Below are positions 19,879 through 30,828 of a stretch of 64,000 nucleotides of DNA, piece by piece. Both the position numbers and the translations under genes were made by a program. Source of the DNA: a virus. Within the stretch, counting starts at the first letter, position 1, and each line of letters starts with the position of its first letter. The notes beneath the pieces were generated by a model. The model saw only the letters and a list, made by a program, of their open reading frames with translations. It was not told the origin of the DNA and did not search any database. The stretch covers positions 29,512-93,511 of IMG/VR virus record IMGVR_UViG_3300035698_007281; one strand, given 5' to 3'.

Positions 19879-21117
19879 ATGGGAATTAAAAACTCATTCT
19901 TCTTCACGCCGGAAGAACTGTCGAAGACGGTCATCAAGAAGGCCGCCCGCCGGACCCCCACTCGTGGGTGTCAGGATTGTGGCCTGGATCGCCTGTGTCG
20001 ATCCGGTAGGATGGATCCCGCCGGTGGTGGTGACTTGGGGATCGCGGTGGTCATGGGATTCCCAGGCGATGAGGAGGGCCGTATCGACCGGCCGATGGTG
20101 GGCCGCCAGGGCGCTTTCCTCCGGAAGCATTTCCGGAAGGTGGGGATCAGCCTGGATGACGACTGCCTGAAGGTCCACGTCCTCCAGTGCCGGACCCCGA
20201 AGGACCGGCTTCCGGAGGGGGAGGAGTTGATGTGTTGCCGGTCGAGAGTGACCAAACAACTCCGTGAGTTCAAACCGGATCTGATCTTCGCCTTCGGGAC
20301 TCCTGCCATCTCCGAGATCCTGAGGGACGCCCCCTTCAGCGCCAACGCCTCCAACATGCACGGCCGGGTCGTCCCGTCCCACCTGTGGGGGTGTCCGGTG
20401 GTGTGTGGGTTTGCCCCCTCGTTTTACCTGTCCGAGAGGCAACGGGGAGAGAAGACCGGGAAGTTCGACGCCCGGATGACCGAGGCCATGAGGTTGGGCC
20501 TGACCGCCCTCGCCGGTCCTCCCCTGGTGGATACACGCCTCGACCCTGTCGGGTTCGAGATGGTCGAAGACTTGGCCGGGGTGGAGCGCCTCCTGAACCG
20601 CCTGACCGCCGAGAAGAAGCCCACGGCCTTCGACTGGGAGACAAACGGCCTCGACTCATTTCAACCTGATGCCAAACTCCTCCTGGCCTCCCTGGCCAAC
20701 GTTGAGGAGACCGCCTGGGTGATCCCCCTGGAACACCGCCAAGCGCGATGGTCCCCCGAGGATCTGGTCCAGGTTAAGGAGTACCTGAAAAACTGGTTGG
20801 CCGGGCCGACGCCGAAGATCATACAGAATTGGCAATTTGAGGAGGTGTGGTCTGTCGTCAAACTGGGGACGACCATCAAGAACGTGGTGGCCGATACGAT
20901 GGTCCGCGCCCACATCCTGGACAACCGATCTGGTGTGACCAAACAGGAGTTCATGGAGTTTGTCCGGTACGGGGAATCAGGACACAAAGGATCCGTGGAT
21001 CGGGCCGCCCTACACCACGAGTACCTCGACACGGTGGCCCGATATGGTGCGCTTGACGTGAGGTACGACCTCCGGATATATTACGATCAACTCGCCGAAC
21101 TACCTATGGAGTTTTGA
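19879..21117 (+). CDS. DNA polymerase A N-terminal part: UDG-family-4-like domain plus 3'-5' exonuclease
   Basis: CQDCGL, GFPGDEE...PMVGRQG, AFDWETNGL (ExoI), QNWQFE (ExoII), YGALDV (ExoIII). Confidence 0.85.
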   Translation: MGIKNSFFFTPEELSKTVIKKAARRTPTRGCQDCGLDRLCRSGRMDPAGGGDLGIAVVMGFPGDEEGRIDRPMVGRQGAFLRKHFRKVGISLDDDCLKVHVLQCRTPKDRLPEGEELMCCRSRVTKQLREFKPDLIFAFGTPAISEILRDAPFSANASNMHGRVVPSHLWGCPVVCGFAPSFYLSERQRGEKTGKFDARMTEAMRLGLTALAGPPLVDTRLDPVGFEMVEDLAGVERLLNRLTAEKKPTAFDWETNGLDSFQPDAKLLLASLANVEETAWVIPLEHRQARWSPEDLVQVKEYLKNWLAGPTPKIIQNWQFEEVWSVVKLGTTIKNVVADTMVRAHILDNRSGVTKQEFMEFVRYGESGHKGSVDRAALHHEYLDTVARYGALDVRYDLRIYYDQLAELPMEF

Positions 21118-21119
21118 TA

Positions 21120-23399
21120 ATGCCTATTCTTGTTGGTGATTGCATCGAAGTCCTCGCTACCCTACCCTCCGGCCACTTCCACACCTGCATCACGTCCCCG
21201 CCCTACTGGGGCCTGCGTGACTACGGAACGGCTGAGTGGGAGGGCGGGGACGCGGAGTGCGATCACAGAAGCCCGGCGCAGGAGGCGAGTGACCGAACAG
21301 CCCTCAGAGTGATGCGGCTATGCCCCAAGTGCGGCGCTCGCAAAACCGACAAGCAACTCGGCCTCGAACCCACCCCCGCCGAGTACGTCGCCAAGATGGT
21401 CGCCGTGTTCCGCGAGGTCCGGCGCGTGCTGCGGGACGACGCAAGTCTTTGGCTTAACCTTGGCTCATCTTACGCTTCTGGTGATATACATCCCAGCCAG
21501 TCTCCCCTGCTTCGGCGTGCTTCTGCATGTGACACCGATGGCACAGCACGGCAAGGTTCTCAATGCGATTGTCTCGCCGGTCACGGTTCCGATGATGAAC
21601 ATCCAACCGGGACTCAGACCCGTCGTGACTGCAACACTCGCACCGACCAACCTTCTCCGCGAGAGCATTCAGGCCCCGCTTCGTCAAGCCGCGATTCGGC
21701 TGCGTCGAGTGAAAGCGAGCCACCTGCTCCCGCTTCTCTTGACGGCGTTCCTTCGTCCACCATGCGGCAATCTTCTTGCCAACCTTCGGACGCTTCCGAC
21801 CTCGGAGCCAAGGCTTTGGCTTCCCGGCTGTCGCCTCAGACATCTTGCGGCAACAATCCTTGGTCCGCTCATATGGGCGACTGCACGCCCGGCACGTCTT
21901 CGATGTCGCCGCCATTGGCTGTCCGCACTCAGGGCAAGGAATCTTTCTTCTCGGCATGTGGTCGCTCCGACTGTCAAGGAATAGGACGGTGTGGCTTCTG
22001 TTGGTGTAGTTTAGCAATCCCATCCCTTGCAGTCAAGCAAAAAGACTTGGTTCCGATACCGTGGCTGGTCGCCCTTGCCCTCCAGGCAGACGGCTGGTAT
22101 CTCCGCCAGGAAATCATCTGGTCGAAGCCCAACCCCATGCCGGAGTCCGTCACCGACCGCTGCACCAAGGCACACGAGAGCATCTTCCTGCTCACGAAGA
22201 AGCCAAGGTACTACTACGACCAGGACGCGATTCGGGAGCCACACCAGGACGCACATCGGGAAGCCAACCGCCCGACTCGGCGAGCCAACTTGAAAAAGGC
22301 CGTTGCTGATGGATGCCCTACATACCACACCGAAGATCACCAGCCGTCCATGGATCTCCCTATGGCCGGGCACGCCAATGGCCGCAACAAACGCTCCGTC
22401 TGGACCGTCAGCACCAGGCCGTTCAGCGGATGGTCTGAAACCTACCATCTGGCCCGTGTGGAACCGGGTGACGCTTCCGGTGGCACGAATCGCATAGAGT
22501 CTCCAGGTTGCCCAGTGCATGATCGTCAGGATCGTCAAGATGGTGGACGTTCAGGCGATCATCCGACCCACACTGGCAGCAGTGGAACTGATCCCGTTCA
22601 AGAGCAGCCTGCCGCGCCGTCGAGTGCTTCCACGCCCCGCGCGAGTTTGCATCCTCCCGATGATTCGGGTTCGCAGGCCCCTGGCAGTTCTCAGCCTGCC
22701 AAGCCCCGTAGCAATCGAACCCGCAAAACGGGCCACGCTCCTGCGACCACTTCGCCATGTACGCCTTCCGGTGAAACACCTGGCCGCACTGACGGCACGT
22801 CAGGGTCACCCGATCCCGCTGGGCCTGGTGAGAGCACGCCCGAGAGCAGAACTTGGCCGGATGAGATGGCCGCTGATTCACTGGATCAAACGCCGCACCA
22901 CACTGTTCGCAAGTCGTCATTGCCAATATCTCCTAAATGCACCTGTGTATTCTACCACAAGATAACCAAGAAAACAAGCCACTTCGCCACCTTCCCGCCC
23001 AAACTCATCGAGCCCTGCGTACTCGCCGGAACCTCCGCCAAGGGATGCTGCCCGGAATGCGGGGCGCCGTGGGAGAGAGTGGTAGAACGCAAGGCCATGG
23101 TCATCGACCGCAGCTCTCGCACGCACAGCAGGGGCCAGACCAGGAGCAGCGGAACGATGGTCGAGCCCCCGAGCAGCACCACGACCGGCTGGGAACCCGC
23201 CTGCCAGCACGACCAGCCACCCGAACCCTGCCGCGTCCTAGACCCCTTCGGCGGGGCAGGAACCACCGGCATGGTCGCCGCGCAGCACGGGAGGGACTAC
23301 ACCCTAATCGAACTCAACCCGGAGTACGCCGCCATTGCCGAGGACCGGGTTGGCAAGGCCGAGTGGTCCTATGAGAAACGAAGGAAGAGGTTTTTTTGA
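21120..23399 (+). CDS. DNA N4-C/N6-A methyltransferase (beta class) with two ~185-aa insertions
   Basis: GDC, TSPPYWGLRDY, WLNLG, IIWSKPNPMPES, HFATFP, LDPFGGAGTT, IELNPEY. Confidence 0.9.
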   Translation: MPILVGDCIEVLATLPSGHFHTCITSPPYWGLRDYGTAEWEGGDAECDHRSPAQEASDRTALRVMRLCPKCGARKTDKQLGLEPTPAEYVAKMVAVFREVRRVLRDDASLWLNLGSSYASGDIHPSQSPLLRRASACDTDGTARQGSQCDCLAGHGSDDEHPTGTQTRRDCNTRTDQPSPREHSGPASSSRDSAASSESEPPAPASLDGVPSSTMRQSSCQPSDASDLGAKALASRLSPQTSCGNNPWSAHMGDCTPGTSSMSPPLAVRTQGKESFFSACGRSDCQGIGRCGFCWCSLAIPSLAVKQKDLVPIPWLVALALQADGWYLRQEIIWSKPNPMPESVTDRCTKAHESIFLLTKKPRYYYDQDAIREPHQDAHREANRPTRRANLKKAVADGCPTYHTEDHQPSMDLPMAGHANGRNKRSVWTVSTRPFSGWSETYHLARVEPGDASGGTNRIESPGCPVHDRQDRQDGGRSGDHPTHTGSSGTDPVQEQPAAPSSASTPRASLHPPDDSGSQAPGSSQPAKPRSNRTRKTGHAPATTSPCTPSGETPGRTDGTSGSPDPAGPGESTPESRTWPDEMAADSLDQTPHHTVRKSSLPISPKCTCVFYHKITKKTSHFATFPPKLIEPCVLAGTSAKGCCPECGAPWERVVERKAMVIDRSSRTHSRGQTRSSGTMVEPPSSTTTGWEPACQHDQPPEPCRVLDPFGGAGTTGMVAAQHGRDYTLIELNPEYAAIAEDRVGKAEWSYEKRRKRFF
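21454..21957 (-). CDS. HNH endonuclease nested antisense in methyltransferase insertion 1
   Basis: GGAG RBS and ATG at 21957; CPECG..TCRAC zinc finger; RCECC..LDVHH..DRRDNRIENLAVLCHRCH..H. Confidence 0.85.
   Translation of the reverse strand: MPRRKIPCPECGQPMAATSKTCRACSRPYERTKDCCRKMSEATAGKPKPWLRGRKRPKVGKKIAAWWTKERRQEKREQVARFHSTQPNRGLTKRGLNALAEKVGRCECCSHDGSESRLDVHHRNRDRRDNRIENLAVLCHRCHMQKHAEAGETGWDVYHQKRKMSQG
22008..22036 (-). promoter_or_regulatory. antisense promoter for HNH 1
   Basis: TTGACT-N17-TAAACT at the right junction of insertion 1. Confidence 0.7.
22423..22920 (-). CDS. HNH endonuclease nested antisense in methyltransferase insertion 2
   Basis: AGGAG RBS; two CxxC..FCxxxC zinc fingers; ALERDQFHCCQCG..LNVHH..GNLETLCDSCHRKRH. 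Confidence 0.88.
   Translation of the reverse strand: MTTCEQCGAAFDPVNQRPSHPAKFCSRACSHQAQRDRVTLTCRQCGQVFHRKAYMAKWSQERGPFCGFDCYGAWQAENCQGPANPNHREDANSRGAWKHSTARQAALERDQFHCCQCGSDDRLNVHHLDDPDDHALGNLETLCDSCHRKRHPVPHGPDGRFQTIR
22949..22977 (-). promoter_or_regulatory. antisense promoter for HNH 2
   Basis: TTGTTT-N17-TAGAAT with extended -10 TG, at the right junction of insertion 2. Confidence 0.7.
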
Positions 23400-24763
23400 T
23401 GTCCAGTAAAGGCCTCGACATGATGGACGCGGACGCCCTCTTCCATGAGGCCATTCCGGTTTTTGCCCAGATGAAGATCCGGGGTGTCCAACTGAACCTC
23501 GGCAAACTGAACGAACTGGACGCCGACGTTCTCGATGAACTTGATGAGGTTCGCCGTGCGATGTCCGGCCCTGAGGCCAAACGGTTCCTGAAGAAGTACG
23601 GCCGGGACTTCGACTCCGGCAAGGACGCCGACAAGCGGAAACTCTTCCTCGGCCTCTTGGGGTTGAAGGCCTTCCGAACTACAAACGAGAAGGGGAACAT
23701 CGATACACCGGGCGACTGTTCAGTTGACGCTGAATCGATCCGCCATCTGATGACCCAGGTCAGTGAGAACTCGTCAACCTACCGACTCCTGGAGGCTTGC
23801 ATCGACGAGGCCCACCTGATCAAGTTGAGGGGGTACGTTAAGAACTTCCGGAAGATGGCCGACCCAAACGGTCGCCTTCATCCATCGTTTCTCCTCCATA
23901 TCGTGTCGTCCTTCAGATCCTCCAGCGCTGATCCCAACTGGCAGAACATCCCGGTGAGGAACCCGGTACTGGCCAGGATCCGCCGGACCATCGTTCCGAC
24001 CTACGACTACTTCATGGAGATGGATTTCTCCGGGGCCGAGGTGCGTGGGTATGGTGTCCACACACTTGACGCCACACTGATCGACAACATCCGAAACAAG
24101 GTTGACTTCCACCGCAAGTATGCCGGGCTTTTGTACGAGAAGCCTGAGGATGAGATCACTGGGGAGGAGCGATTTCAAGGGAAGAATCAATTCATCTTCC
24201 CGGAGTTTTATGGGTCGTACCATAAGTCCATTGCCAAGAAGAATCCCCAGTGGAGGGCGAGGGCCGTCGAGAAGGCCGAGAAGATTTTGTGGGATGACAT
24301 GCCCGACGTTAAGCGTTGGCAGGAGGACACGGCCGAGGATTACTACAAGGACGGTTACATCGACTACCTCACCGGCTTCCGGATCAAGTATGGGAAGCGC
24401 GGGTTCCTGACCTTCAACCAGATCTGTAACCTCCCCAACCAGGGGTTCGCCTTCCACCGCCTCCTTCGGATCCTGATCAATGTTGAGAATGAGATGAGAC
24501 GCCGGAACATGAAGTCCTGGATCTGTGGCCAGATCCATGACTCGGTTGTGGTTGACGTTGTCAAGGAAGAGGCCCACGATCTGATGGCGATCTTCGAGAC
24601 CCACGTCCGGAAACCGTGTTGGGGTTTCGACGATGTGGTCCCGTGGGAGGCGGAATACAAACTGGGGAAGAACTTCGTTGATTCGATAGAGGTGGAGACT
24701 GGTGTGGATCTCGATGATCTGGATCTGCGCCTCATAGAGAAGATGGGAAAGGCCCTATCATGA
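23399..24763 (+). CDS. DNA polymerase A polymerase domain (C-terminal part)
   Basis: RSSSADPNWQNIP, motif A MDFSGAEVR, motif B K..F.F...YG, motif C QIHDSVV. Confidence 0.9.
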   Translation: MSSKGLDMMDADALFHEAIPVFAQMKIRGVQLNLGKLNELDADVLDELDEVRRAMSGPEAKRFLKKYGRDFDSGKDADKRKLFLGLLGLKAFRTTNEKGNIDTPGDCSVDAESIRHLMTQVSENSSTYRLLEACIDEAHLIKLRGYVKNFRKMADPNGRLHPSFLLHIVSSFRSSSADPNWQNIPVRNPVLARIRRTIVPTYDYFMEMDFSGAEVRGYGVHTLDATLIDNIRNKVDFHRKYAGLLYEKPEDEITGEERFQGKNQFIFPEFYGSYHKSIAKKNPQWRARAVEKAEKILWDDMPDVKRWQEDTAEDYYKDGYIDYLTGFRIKYGKRGFLTFNQICNLPNQGFAFHRLLRILINVENEMRRRNMKSWICGQIHDSVVVDVVKEEAHDLMAIFETHVRKPCWGFDDVVPWEAEYKLGKNFVDSIEVETGVDLDDLDLRLIEKMGKALS

Positions 24764-25197: not shown

Positions 25198-26040
25198 ATG
25201 AGATACGCCGTCTGTATTCCAACGTGTGGCCGGACCGAGGTTCTTGAACGGACCCTCACCGCCGTCCTGGCCCAGAGGCCCGCCCCCGGTGCTGTGTGGT
25301 TGGTGGACAACAATGAGGATCCCACCTACCTGGACGCCATCCAACTCCCCGCCGGTGTGGGGAAGACCTCGGTGAGAAGTGGTGTCCCCCAATCAGATCC
25401 GGCCGGTTCAAATTGCGGTCTCCAACTTGCCGCCCAGTTCGGGTACGAGTACCTGATCAAATGGGATGACGACCTGATCCCCCTCCCTGGTTGTTTCAAG
25501 GCCCTGGTGGCCCCTCTGGAGTCCTACGACTCCGTGGTCGCCGTTGGAGGCCTTTACCCCTCTCCGGAGAACCAAGGGCGATTGTCGGCCCTTGTGGATG
25601 GCCAACTGAAGATCCCCGACGAACGGCCCAACCACCTCCAGTTCTTTCCCTGGGAGGGTAGACGCCGAAGGTTCGTCGTCCACCACCTCTACTCGTCCTT
25701 CGCCTACCGGGTGTCGAGGGCGCTCCTGGTGGGTGGTTTCTGTGAGGACTACTCCCTGGTGGCCCACCGCCACGAGACCGACTTCACGATGCGCCTGGAC
25801 GCTGTGGGCGACCTGATGGTCGATACCAATGCCACAGCCATCCACCTCGTTGAAGCCGGAGGGACGAGGAGGTTCTCTCAGATGGAGCGCCATGGGATGG
25901 TGAACCTGGACGAGGAGATCTTCCGCCGCCGGATGGTGAGGATGGATCTCCTGTGGAACCTGGACATTGAGACGGTCAACGCCGCCCCCTCCGACCCGAG
26001 GCACATGGTGGCCGTGGGTGGTATAGGCCCTTGCCGGTGA
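25198..26040 (+). CDS. glycosyltransferase family 2
   Basis: VCIPT, LVDNN, KWDDD, ETDF. Confidence 0.8.
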   Translation: MRYAVCIPTCGRTEVLERTLTAVLAQRPAPGAVWLVDNNEDPTYLDAIQLPAGVGKTSVRSGVPQSDPAGSNCGLQLAAQFGYEYLIKWDDDLIPLPGCFKALVAPLESYDSVVAVGGLYPSPENQGRLSALVDGQLKIPDERPNHLQFFPWEGRRRRFVVHHLYSSFAYRVSRALLVGGFCEDYSLVAHRHETDFTMRLDAVGDLMVDTNATAIHLVEAGGTRRFSQMERHGMVNLDEEIFRRRMVRMDLLWNLDIETVNAAPSDPRHMVAVGGIGPCR

Positions 26041-26123
26041 AAGTCTGAGGTGAACCTCCTGGGGTTTCGCTATACTGTGGCGTGGCCGGGATGATCTGGC
26101 CGGTACTTGTAAGGGATCTCTTG

Positions 26124-26678
26124 ATGACGAAACACAAGGCCAGGAATTGTAAAGAATGTTTGGTTTCTTATACACCAACGACGGGCAATCAAAAGTACTG
26201 TGTCGATTGTGGGGAAGAGGCCCAGAAGGTCAAGTCCAAGGAGTGGCACGCCGAATCTTACGCCAACCTGACCCCCAAGGAGAGAGAAGCCCGGTTGGCC
26301 TACTGCAGGGAGTACGATGCCAAACGAAAGGCCAACATGACCCCCAAGGAGAGAGAAGCCCAGAAGGTTAAGAGGCGGAAAACAAATAGGGCTGCAAGAA
26401 GCAAGACCCTCCGGTTCGATATCCTTGAACGTGACAACTTCACCTGTCAATACTGTGGATGGCAACCCGGCCACGGAGGGGGCCGCCGCCTCGAAGTGGA
26501 CCATCGGGATCCCCTGGCCGGTAAGAAGAGGCGATACTCCAAGGACGATCTCGTGACGGCGTGTAGTGAATGCAACGGCGGGAAGTCCGATAAGTTCCTG
26601 ACTCCCAGAGAGTGTTGTGGGTTGTCGTTCACCCGAGGCCGGGACTTCATCACGCATCGGGCCGAGGCCCACACATAG
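26124..26678 (+). CDS. free-standing HNH endonuclease
   Basis: LRFDILERDNFTCQYCG..LEVDH..DLVTACSECNGGK. Confidence 0.85.
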   Translation: MTKHKARNCKECLVSYTPTTGNQKYCVDCGEEAQKVKSKEWHAESYANLTPKEREARLAYCREYDAKRKANMTPKEREAQKVKRRKTNRAARSKTLRFDILERDNFTCQYCGWQPGHGGGRRLEVDHRDPLAGKKRRYSKDDLVTACSECNGGKSDKFLTPRECCGLSFTRGRDFITHRAEAHT

Positions 26679-26915: not shown

Positions 26916-27656
26916 ATGACTGACCAGACACCCCCGGCGAGCAACTGCCCGAAGTGCGGGGCGGGGAGACGAAAGCTCGATAAACACGAGAAGGAGAACC
27001 GCCGCCTCCACCGGCAACTATCCCAGGCCCAGGCCGAGATCGAGCGGATGCGTGTCGCGATTGAGATACAGCGGGACGCGATTGAGATACGCAATGGCGA
27101 CCTGGGCACGGCCCAGGCCCGCATCGCCGAACTGGAGGCCGAGCTAGCCCCTCGCCAGGTCGAGTGCCAGCACGCGGCAGGCGTGACGCACGACGCCACT
27201 GGTATCCCGTGCGTGTGGTGCGAGGTGGAGAGTCTGGAAGCTGACGCGAAATCCCGCGACGTGATCGAGAAGGCCCAGGCCGAACGAGCGAAGAGGTTGA
27301 TGGCCAAACTCGCCACGGCCCGGCGGGATGCGTTGGCCGTCTACATCCAGGAGCAGAGGGCATGGAGCGAGCGAACCTTTGGGCCTGGAATGCGGACGAT
27401 TGGTTTGACTCGACACATCCGGAAGGAGTTAATCGAAATCGCAGCAGACCCGCACGACGTGACCGAATGGATTGACGTTGTGATTCTGGCACTGGATGGG
27501 GCGTGGCGATGCGGTAAGACGCCTAAAGAAGTCGCCCTTGCTATGCTGGCAAAACAGGCAGTGAACTTCGCCCGTGAGTGGCCGCCGCCTGGGCCAGACG
27601 ACGAACCCAGCGAGCATGTCCGCGACCTCGTGGGGAAGGAGCGCACTGATGATTGA
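26916..27656 (+). CDS. coiled-coil protein with C-terminal DUF550-like (MazG-superfamily) dNTP pyrophosphohydrolase domain
   Basis: WSERTFGPG..HIRKELIEI..EWIDVVILALDGAWR..KQAVNFAREWP. Confidence 0.75.
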   Translation: MTDQTPPASNCPKCGAGRRKLDKHEKENRRLHRQLSQAQAEIERMRVAIEIQRDAIEIRNGDLGTAQARIAELEAELAPRQVECQHAAGVTHDATGIPCVWCEVESLEADAKSRDVIEKAQAERAKRLMAKLATARRDALAVYIQEQRAWSERTFGPGMRTIGLTRHIRKELIEIAADPHDVTEWIDVVILALDGAWRCGKTPKEVALAMLAKQAVNFAREWPPPGPDDEPSEHVRDLVGKERTDD

Positions 27657-29493: not shown

Positions 29494-30828
29494 ATGAACA
29501 CCATCGAGATACCCTACACGCCCCACGCCCAACAAATGAAGGCCCACCAAGCCAAGGAACCGTACATCCTCTTCGGGGGTGCGGTAGGGGGAGGGAAGTC
29601 GGTGTGTCTGGTCAATGATGCCCTATACCGATCCATGTGGTGGTCAGGGAACCGGGTGGGTATATATCGTTGGGAGTACGCCTCATTCATGAAGACCACC
29701 TTCAAGACCCTGGAGGAATGGGTCTTCGGTGTCCCCGGCCTCGTCACCTACCACAACGAACAGAAGAAGGTGATCCGCCTGTGTAACGGGTCAGAGATCT
29801 TTTATGGGGGCCTGAAGCCCTCCTCCATGGTATCAGGAGATCCCCTGTCCGTGGTCAAGTCCCTGGAACTGTCCACAGCGTATCTCGACGAGGTCACCGA
29901 CTTCCCCGAGAACGTGTATTCATTTCTCCCGGCCCGTGTCGGCCGTGTTAAGTGCATGAACTCCCGAACGGGCATCAGAGAGTTTCCTCCTGCAAGGATA
30001 CTTGCGTCTTGCAACCCAGCCCTGGGGTGGGTCAAACTGAAGTGGGTTGATGAACCTGTATTAAAAGACCACGTATTTATTCCCTCGAAAGTCTCCGACA
30101 ACCCCTATCTGACGAAGGAGTACGAGGAGCGGTTGAGAGAAACATGGTCATCAACCCCCATGGACCTGGAGCGGTATCTTGATGGATCCTGGGACGCTGT
30201 AATCGATTACGAGGCGGTCTGCCCTGCGCCCTGGTTGACCCGTGCGACCAAGTTGTCCTATAGGCCTACCCGTGGGGATGTGGTGGCCTTCGGTGTTGAT
30301 GTGGGAGCGTATGGGAACGATAAGACCGTCGTGATCAAAAGGACAGGCCGAAAAGCGGAGATCCTCTACGAGGCCTCCTGTCAGTCAACCACCAAGACTA
30401 CCGCCGACATCGAGACCCTGGCCGGTATCCACAACCCATCCATCATCGTGGTCGATTCTATCGGTGTAGGCCAGGGCGTGTACGACTCCCTGAACGATGA
30501 CGGGTATCCCGTCTTTGGGTTCATCGGTGGAGCGAAGGCCCGAGACCCTCGGTTCCTGAACCTTCGTGCTGAAACCTACTGGGGCTTCCGGAACATGTTG
30601 GAGAAGGGCCTCGTGGACATCCCGGCCTCGGCGGCCCTGATCAACGACATCGGTGTGATCAAGTACACAAGGAACGCTTCGGACCGGGTCATCCAGATCG
30701 AGTCCAAGGGGGGTATCAAGAAGCGCCTGGGCAAGTCCCCTGACTACGCCGATGCCCTGATCTACGCCTACTATGGTGAAGGTTTCGAGTATGGGATCGG
30801 TGGAGTGTTCGGGGCCAGTGAAGGATGA
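29494..30828 (+). CDS. terL: terminase large subunit
   Basis: GGAVGGGKS, AYLDE, ASCNP, FGVDVG, KSPDYADAL. Confidence 0.92.
   Translation: MNTIEIPYTPHAQQMKAHQAKEPYILFGGAVGGGKSVCLVNDALYRSMWWSGNRVGIYRWEYASFMKTTFKTLEEWVFGVPGLVTYHNEQKKVIRLCNGSEIFYGGLKPSSMVSGDPLSVVKSLELSTAYLDEVTDFPENVYSFLPARVGRVKCMNSRTGIREFPPARILASCNPALGWVKLKWVDEPVLKDHVFIPSKVSDNPYLTKEYEERLRETWSSTPMDLERYLDGSWDAVIDYEAVCPAPWLTRATKLSYRPTRGDVVAFGVDVGAYGNDKTVVIKRTGRKAEILYEASCQSTTKTTADIETLAGIHNPSIIVVDSIGVGQGVYDSLNDDGYPVFGFIGGAKARDPRFLNLRAETYWGFRNMLEKGLVDIPASAALINDIGVIKYTRNASDRVIQIESKGGIKKRLGKSPDYADALIYAYYGEGFEYGIGGVFGASEG

Follow-up and report, generated by a model that had tools for sequence, protein, structure and literature searches.

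Two antisense HNH endonuclease genes apparently read through in frame within one phage DNA methyltransferase gene

One DNA methyltransferase (methylase) gene in a 64,000-nucleotide stretch of phage DNA (IMG/VR record IMGVR_UViG_3300035698_007281, positions 29,512 to 93,511; hereafter the window) contains two inserts, each of which carries a complete HNH endonuclease gene on the opposite strand and yet has no stop codon when read as methylase. The best explanation of the evidence as a whole, and one that we consider likely, is that the inserts are non-splicing antisense HNH elements that are situated in loops of the methylase and read through. A preliminary description of this DNA, made from its sequence alone, had proposed a frame-preserving antisense element of this kind; the proposal now holds across more than 100 loci, and neither an intron nor an intein signature was found. 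Such elements would add to introns and inteins a third means by which a homing-type nuclease can inhabit a useful gene without breaking it. The pairs described here also constitute one of the best comparative cases in phages of long (about 500 bp) antisense overlapping protein-coding genes, with selection visible on both strands.

Two antisense nuclease genes in one methylase gene

The methylase open reading frame (ORF) starts at 21114 or 21120 and ends at 23399 on the plus strand, the longer version giving a product of 761 amino acids (aa). All the features that define a beta-class N4/N6 DNA methyltransferase are found in it: motif IV (TSPPY) at 21192-21206, motif I (DPFGGAGTTG) at 23241-23270, and the Pfam profile N6_N4_Mtase (PF01555), which matches in three separate stretches (E = 2e-35). 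As the preliminary description had claimed, two inserts interrupt this gene; its closest empty homologue, P0363, has neither. The insert boundaries were drawn against the P0363 protein, and their nucleotide positions are approximate. Each insert is a complete antisense gene, with the promoter, the ribosome-binding site (RBS), the zinc-ribbon HNH coding sequence (CDS) and the stop codon all lying where they had been placed. The features are as follows.

21120..23399, plus strand: beta-class N4/N6 DNA methyltransferase ORF, 759 aa, reading through both inserts (Pfam; AlphaFold2 core with a predicted local distance difference test score, pLDDT, of >90)
about 21477..22034: insert 1, about 186 codons, between WLNLGSSYA and KQKDL; absent in the empty homologues P0363, P0102 and P0106
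21454..21957, minus strand: HNH1 CDS, 167 aa, with an N-terminal CPxC...CRxC zinc ribbon and a C-terminal HNH (Pfam HNH); stop codon in the L-N codons of WLNLG
22036-22008, minus strand: HNH1 promoter TTGACT-17-(TG)CTAAACT, conserved in about 70 loci
21963..21970, minus strand: HNH1 RBS GGAG, conserved across loci
21951..22007, plus strand: sense-frame Cys motif SAC-x4-C-x5-C-x2-C-W-C within the 5' untranslated region (UTR) of HNH1, under protein-level purifying selection
22431..22979: insert 2, 183 codons, flanked by RPFSG and HFATFP; sequence of the empty allele ...PFKG-AHFATFP
22423..22920, minus strand: HNH2 CDS, 165 aa, a multi-zinc-ribbon HNH of a family different from HNH1 (Pfam HNH); ATG at 22920, stop codon in the F-S codons of PFSG
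22949..22979, minus strand: HNH2 promoter, conserved in about 28 loci
22929..22935, minus strand: HNH2 RBS AGGAG, conserved across loci
22938..22946, plus strand: sense-frame C-x-C motif in the HNH2 5' UTR, with TGT/TGC synonymous variation

The antisense ORF of HNH1 spans 21454-22023, and the alignment of its relatives puts the true start at 21957 (MPRRKIPCPECG); the antisense ORF of HNH2 spans 22423-22926, and its relatives likewise point to the start at 22920. The HNH core, that is, the beta-beta-alpha-Me fold with its His-Asn-His residues and CxxC...CxxC zinc site, is recognized through Pfam matches (PF01844/PF13392) and through the invariant residues of the HNH1 family alignment (C106, C109, H121, H122, N134, C139, C142, H143 and H147). 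The AlphaFold2 model of HNH1 has a pLDDT of 85, and its top Foldseek matches in the PDB include HNH domains, all of them weak and none significant (best E 0.098). HNH1 and HNH2 have the catalytic core alone in common (44% identity over 39 aa). The -35 box of HNH1 (TTGACT, 22036-22031) is partly made of host V-K codons and is followed by the extended -10 element TGCTAAACT at 22016-22008, and the weak -35 box of HNH2 (TTGTTT) adjoins the host HFA codons, with the extended -10 element TGGTAGAAT at 22957-22949.

Contigs from four independent salt-lake metagenome runs span all four insert junctions with zero differences, and therefore the arrangement is not an assembly artefact. Some read joints connect 22405 with 22979 across 24-28 other letters, leaving out insert 2, but their sides are only 20-30 nucleotides long; these joints probably derive from other methylase genes of the same lakes and were not counted as empty alleles of the window phage.

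Stop avoidance in the methylase frame

In both HNH genes, the first codon position of the antisense strand pairs with the first position of the methylase codon, which is not the codon-aligned shadow frame; this common register, already noted for the window, holds across both families. In 15 other genes of the phage, the same antisense register meets one stop per 32 codons, giving a probability of 0.005 for 167 open codons. When synonymous codons were permuted within each HNH gene of the window, 3.5 (HNH1) and 3.7 (HNH2) sense stops were expected, and a stop-free sense frame was rare by chance (P = 0.004 and 0.002, respectively). The risky codons xTT, xCT and xTC, which create a sense stop when A comes next, are never followed by A in either gene (0/18 and 0/23).

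Loci were retrieved by HNH peptide patterns and tblastn, which makes the sample blind to the state of the sense frame. In the HNH1 family, all 76 testable loci, which are mutually diverged (mean identity 56%), contain zero stops in the methylase register, where 3.4 were expected and the mean probability of none (P0) is 0.034; summed over the 76 loci, the shuffle probability is about 10^-148. The remaining two antisense registers of the HNH1 loci contain 3-16 and 0-9 stops. The HNH2 family has likewise zero sense stops at 30 of 30 distinct loci, compared with 1.3-6.2 expected. The HNH gene lies on the strand opposite to the methylase at every locus of both families. The view that stop-free sense runs suggest selection, put forward initially for the window, is confirmed by this observation (0 stops in 76/76 and 30/30 loci against about 3 per locus in the shuffles), which is statistically overwhelming. 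The sense frame is nonetheless open in L084, in which the HNH gene is broken, and in P0079, in which it is deleted. What remains of insert 1 in P0079 is its two ends, about 70 aa in frame, and this copy resembles a decaying element.

Selection on each strand and predicted structure

Within the overlap, selection follows the nuclease: compared pairwise, the loci are 57% identical in the HNH frame against 28% in the sense frame, and nucleotide entropy tracks the HNH codon phase (0.94/0.86/1.51), which shows HNH to be under purifying selection. In the register used, the third positions of the HNH codons are the second positions of the sense codons; therefore, the sense peptide drifts freely, is rich in S, A, G, P and D, and is constrained against stops only.

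The promoter-proximal ends of the inserts, which lie outside the HNH coding sequences, present a different pattern. In the 5' UTR of HNH1, read in the sense frame, Cys is invariant in 23 of 23 loci and the third positions of Gly codons are free, with an entropy of 0.57/0.44/1.17 by sense codon phase. In the 5' UTR of HNH2, the C-x-C motif is kept in 28 of 29 loci by mixed TGT and TGC codons (17:11 and 15:13). By these codon comparisons, selection within the inserts acts at the protein level on the Cys residues of the methylase frame, and their conservation with synonymous variation is direct comparative evidence for translation of the sense strand. In the -10 and -35 boxes, it is the DNA itself that is conserved; a Leu codon fixed as TTA, for instance, matches TAAACT on the opposite strand.

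An AlphaFold2 model built with 99 sequences gave a methylase core with pLDDT >90 and looped both inserts out as long disordered segments with semi-ordered ends, as the preliminary description had anticipated. In insert 1, pLDDT is <50 over residues about 121-275 and 57-86 in the part with the Cys motif; in insert 2, residues about 474-578 are at pLDDT <50. The loops mark insertion-tolerant sites in methylases. The initial characterization of the inserts as tolerated loops holds in that they are disordered and drift within the overlap; they are not merely passive, however, as the Cys motifs outside the HNH coding sequences are under protein-level selection.

Insertion sites, occupancy and mobility

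The HNH1 family is tight: it comprises 92 protein clusters at 43-73% identity, nearly all about 167 aa long. In all 66 HNH1 loci with enough flank for sense-frame alignment, the element lies in one and the same methylase loop, immediately upstream of K-x-K-D-L, and more than 100 called proteins of the protein collection read through insert 1. HNH1 matched none of 50,697 GenBank phage records in a tblastn search. HNH2 is represented by 14 close clusters, and its 30 distinct loci are all situated between PFSG and HFATFP in one common register. Both sites are occupied in L032, L093, P0002 and P0076 as well as in the window. Gene callers report just one of the two overlapping genes, and over-long metagenome methylases with low-complexity 'domains' may conceal nuclease genes. 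Other Cys-rich inserts of similar size are present at the insert-1 loop in P0109 and P0113 and may be further antisense nuclease families.

A further relative is the 1043-aa methylase of a 98-kb viral contig (L145, 2519-5650, minus strand), in which site 1 is empty and site 2 holds an antisense HNH2 element (70% identical). The same gene holds a LAGLIDADG intein (CLAGETP...THN/C) after the motif 'IIW'; the methylase family is therefore a hot spot for selfish elements, and three kinds of such element have been found across it.

Occupancy is patchy. The nearest methylase, P0363, is 82% identical to the window enzyme in the mid core and is its sister (support 93), with both sites empty. On a core tree of 196 tips, site-1 occupancy requires at least 15 changes, compared with 66 when labels are shuffled, and several supported sister pairs consist of one occupied and one empty allele. 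Pairwise identities of HNH and core are weakly correlated (r = 0.33). We infer from these patterns that homing is the most economical reading of the mobility of the elements.

Proposed mechanism and alternative explanations

We propose that two unrelated selfish HNH endonuclease genes each settled backwards in its own loop of the methylase gene. Each element supplies an extended -10 sigma-70 promoter, an RBS and the HNH CDS on the antisense strand, so that the nuclease would be made from an antisense transcript. Neither element would be removed by RNA or protein splicing; because their lengths are multiples of three and the methylase frame is stop-free, the ribosome would read through, and two mostly disordered loops, each about 185 residues long, would project from a methylase fold that is intact apart from them. 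The conserved Cys motifs that each element encodes close to its promoter probably form a small metal-binding or structured base for the loop. The comparisons establish that both strands code, that sense stops are selected against, that HNH is under purifying selection and the Cys motifs under selection in the sense frame, that each family keeps to its site, that the promoters are conserved and that occupancy is patchy. Beyond this, the elements would spread through HNH cutting of empty alleles, the loop-bearing methylase would be active, and the Cys motifs would bind metal.

Several points weigh against this mechanism. An approximately unbiased (AU) test fails to reject one clade comprising the occupied alleles (log-likelihood difference 164, p = 0.081, 170 columns). 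The mean divergence of HNH (56%) equals that of the host core (55%), which fits long co-residence as well as frequent transfer, and no pair with near-identical HNH in clearly divergent hosts was found. In addition, the loop-bearing methylase could be impaired, and Rfam models can miss atypical introns. The original suggestion that the elements may home into empty alleles is consequently supported in part: the patchy occupancy, the 15 changes and the occupied and empty sisters speak for it, and a single origin is not rejected.

The elements might instead be a domesticated, vertically inherited dual-coding module, in which HNH has ceased to be a homing enzyme, or never was one, and is a functional partner of the methylase, such as a restriction-like or addiction nuclease blocked by methylation; nesting would secure co-inheritance, and antisense transcription would set the protein ratio. 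The AU result and the equal divergence of HNH and core are as this explanation would have them, each HNH family is found only within its own methylase site (80/80 and 30/30), and the selected sense-frame Cys motifs imply co-adaptation. We nevertheless consider it rather improbable, for closely related methylases without inserts look intact, the core tree contains supported occupied and empty sisters with at least 15 changes, and decayed copies (P0079 and L084) exist. Two unrelated HNH genes in one methylase, together with an intein in the family, are a hallmark of a selfish-element hot spot, and distant relatives of HNH2 are nested in terminase genes.

A more speculative elaboration, to which we give only a small chance, is that each element encodes, in the methylase frame, a small clasp of Cys residues, probably zinc-binding, which would hold its own loop at the base, a structural stand-in for splicing that would render the insertion harmless, and/or that HNH and methylase form a one-locus, two-strand pair of nuclease and protector balanced by convergent transcription.

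It is very unlikely that the inserts are atypical self-splicing introns whose homing endonuclease gene lies antisense and in which an open sense frame is incidental or serves another purpose. Phage HNH genes are often carried by group I introns, and Rfam models can overlook divergent introns; nonetheless, a scan of 20500-24000 gave no Rfam match at E<=1, the sense frame contains no stop in 106 of 106 loci, a constraint that would be needless under splicing, the Cys codons inside the putative intron show three-periodic, protein-level conservation, and the promoter and RBS account for the conserved non-coding parts. Membership among group I/II introns was accordingly rejected (no ribozyme core by Rfam, an open host frame and sense codons under selection). 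Membership among inteins was rejected as well: the 761-aa product has no Hint/intein Pfam domain, and the +1 residues are Lys at site 1 and His at site 2, as opposed to the Cys, Ser or Thr of an intein, for which the true intein of L145 provides a contrast.

That the frames are open by chance, or that the methylase is a dead gene, has a negligible probability: the genome has 59% GC and many long antisense ORFs, but these lie mostly in the shadow register and not in the register used here with its stop every 32 codons, the shuffle probabilities are minute both in the window and over the 76 loci, which at 56% HNH identity are not near-clonal, and the catalytic motifs are invariant among occupied methylase alleles.

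Relation to known systems

Homing endonucleases are typically borne by introns or inteins or are free-standing, as exemplified by I-HmuI and I-TevI and by MobE, which splits nrdA in Aeh1. The window elements resemble these in that a selfish nuclease occupies a conserved site of a useful gene whose function must be spared; they differ in that there is neither splicing nor gene splitting, the host being spared by in-frame read-through of the complement.

The closest parallel is the ShiLan domain, in which an out-of-frame HNH lies hidden in an insertion within DNA methylases of actinobacteriophages; Pacc40 gp60 is a further case (Gosselin et al. 2023, PMC9957025; Arsenault, Gosselin & Gogarten 2025, PMC11855218). 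ShiLan insertions have no host-frame stops, no intron or intein features and a disjunct distribution, with the HNH read in the +3 frame on the methylase strand; the HNH has no promoter or RBS, and the papers leave its translation unexplained (PMC9957025, PMC11855218). The window elements share the HNH in a phage DNA methylase, the stop-free host frame, the absence of a detectable intron or intein, the predicted looping-out and an apparently patchy distribution, and in both cases the host methylase family also carries inteins and LAGLIDADG elements. They differ in that the HNH genes lie on the opposite strand with their own conserved promoter and RBS, which makes them a variant and not a strict member. 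Further differences are that the window gene holds two elements and that the present sample exceeds 100 loci, with quantified stop avoidance and sense-frame Cys selection. The HNH families and insertion sites probably differ as well: HNH1 has no tblastn match among the 50,697 phage records, and the organism tally of the HNH2 matches names no Mycobacterium phage. The ShiLan site was sought via Mantra and Rando14, and the Mantra gene was an uninterrupted 314-aa methylase with an upstream HNH.

The preliminary description had supposed the strategy to be undescribed. In this it was partly mistaken: the logic of an HNH hidden on the same strand has been published (PMC9957025, PMC11855218), and the antisense arrangement is not mentioned in either paper. 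What is already known is thus the same-strand form, and what is new is the antisense, self-promoted and doubly occupied form in two families. The antisense form answers the question of nuclease expression that the same-strand form leaves, through its own promoter and RBS.

Distant homologues of HNH2 (24-28% identity) are present in three cultured phages, namely Gordonia phage Clown (L143), Synechococcus phage S-EIVl (L144) and Escherichia phage BUCT618 (L142). As in the window, an HNH2-like gene lies inside a long open host ORF; in these phages, however, nuclease and host ORF share one strand (+2/+3 frame), and the host genes are different ones. The annotated ORFs of 620-920 aa (terminase in Clown and S-EIVl, methyltransferase in BUCT618) stay open over the out-of-frame HNH2-like ORFs, which are unannotated cases in cultured phages.

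Long antisense overlapping protein-coding genes have been put forward as candidates in E. coli O157:H7 (PMC9927249). The likeness to the present pairs lies in about 500 bp being protein-coding on both strands (PMC9927249); most reported cases each rest on one genome, whereas both frames are here backed by more than 100 diverged loci.

Genomic setting of the methylase gene

The source genome is that of a tailed phage occurring in salt-lake metagenomes; it is complete (93.5 kb, 59.4% GC) with direct terminal repeats, and it also codes for a terminase, a portal protein, a major head protein, a sliding clamp and PolA. No close relatives of the phage were found in IMG/VR when sought with a PolA half.

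Two ORFs encode the family A DNA polymerase, the break falling exactly between its exonuclease and polymerase domains: window 19879-21117 (uracil-DNA glycosylase and 3'-5' exonuclease, 412 aa) and 23396-24763 (polymerase domain, 455 aa). The entire methylase gene lies between the two halves with overlapping stop and start codons, and the methylase cassette may itself have been inserted into polA.

Downstream, a gene with a MazZ-like dATP/dGTP pyrophosphohydrolase domain (PF04447/DUF550, E = 4e-24) occupies window 26916-27656 on the plus strand. For this reason, a PurZ-like adenylosuccinate synthetase was looked for throughout the genome; it is absent, and there is therefore no sign of a Z-base pathway. 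A third HNH endonuclease gene, free-standing, lies at window 26082-26678 on the plus strand (198 aa, Pfam HNH E = 4e-9). The strand opposite this gene is likewise open throughout (200 aa); there, however, the register is the codon-aligned shadow frame, often found open in this phage with its high GC content. A gene for a family 2 glycosyltransferase (window 25198-26040, plus strand) adjoins the replication module.

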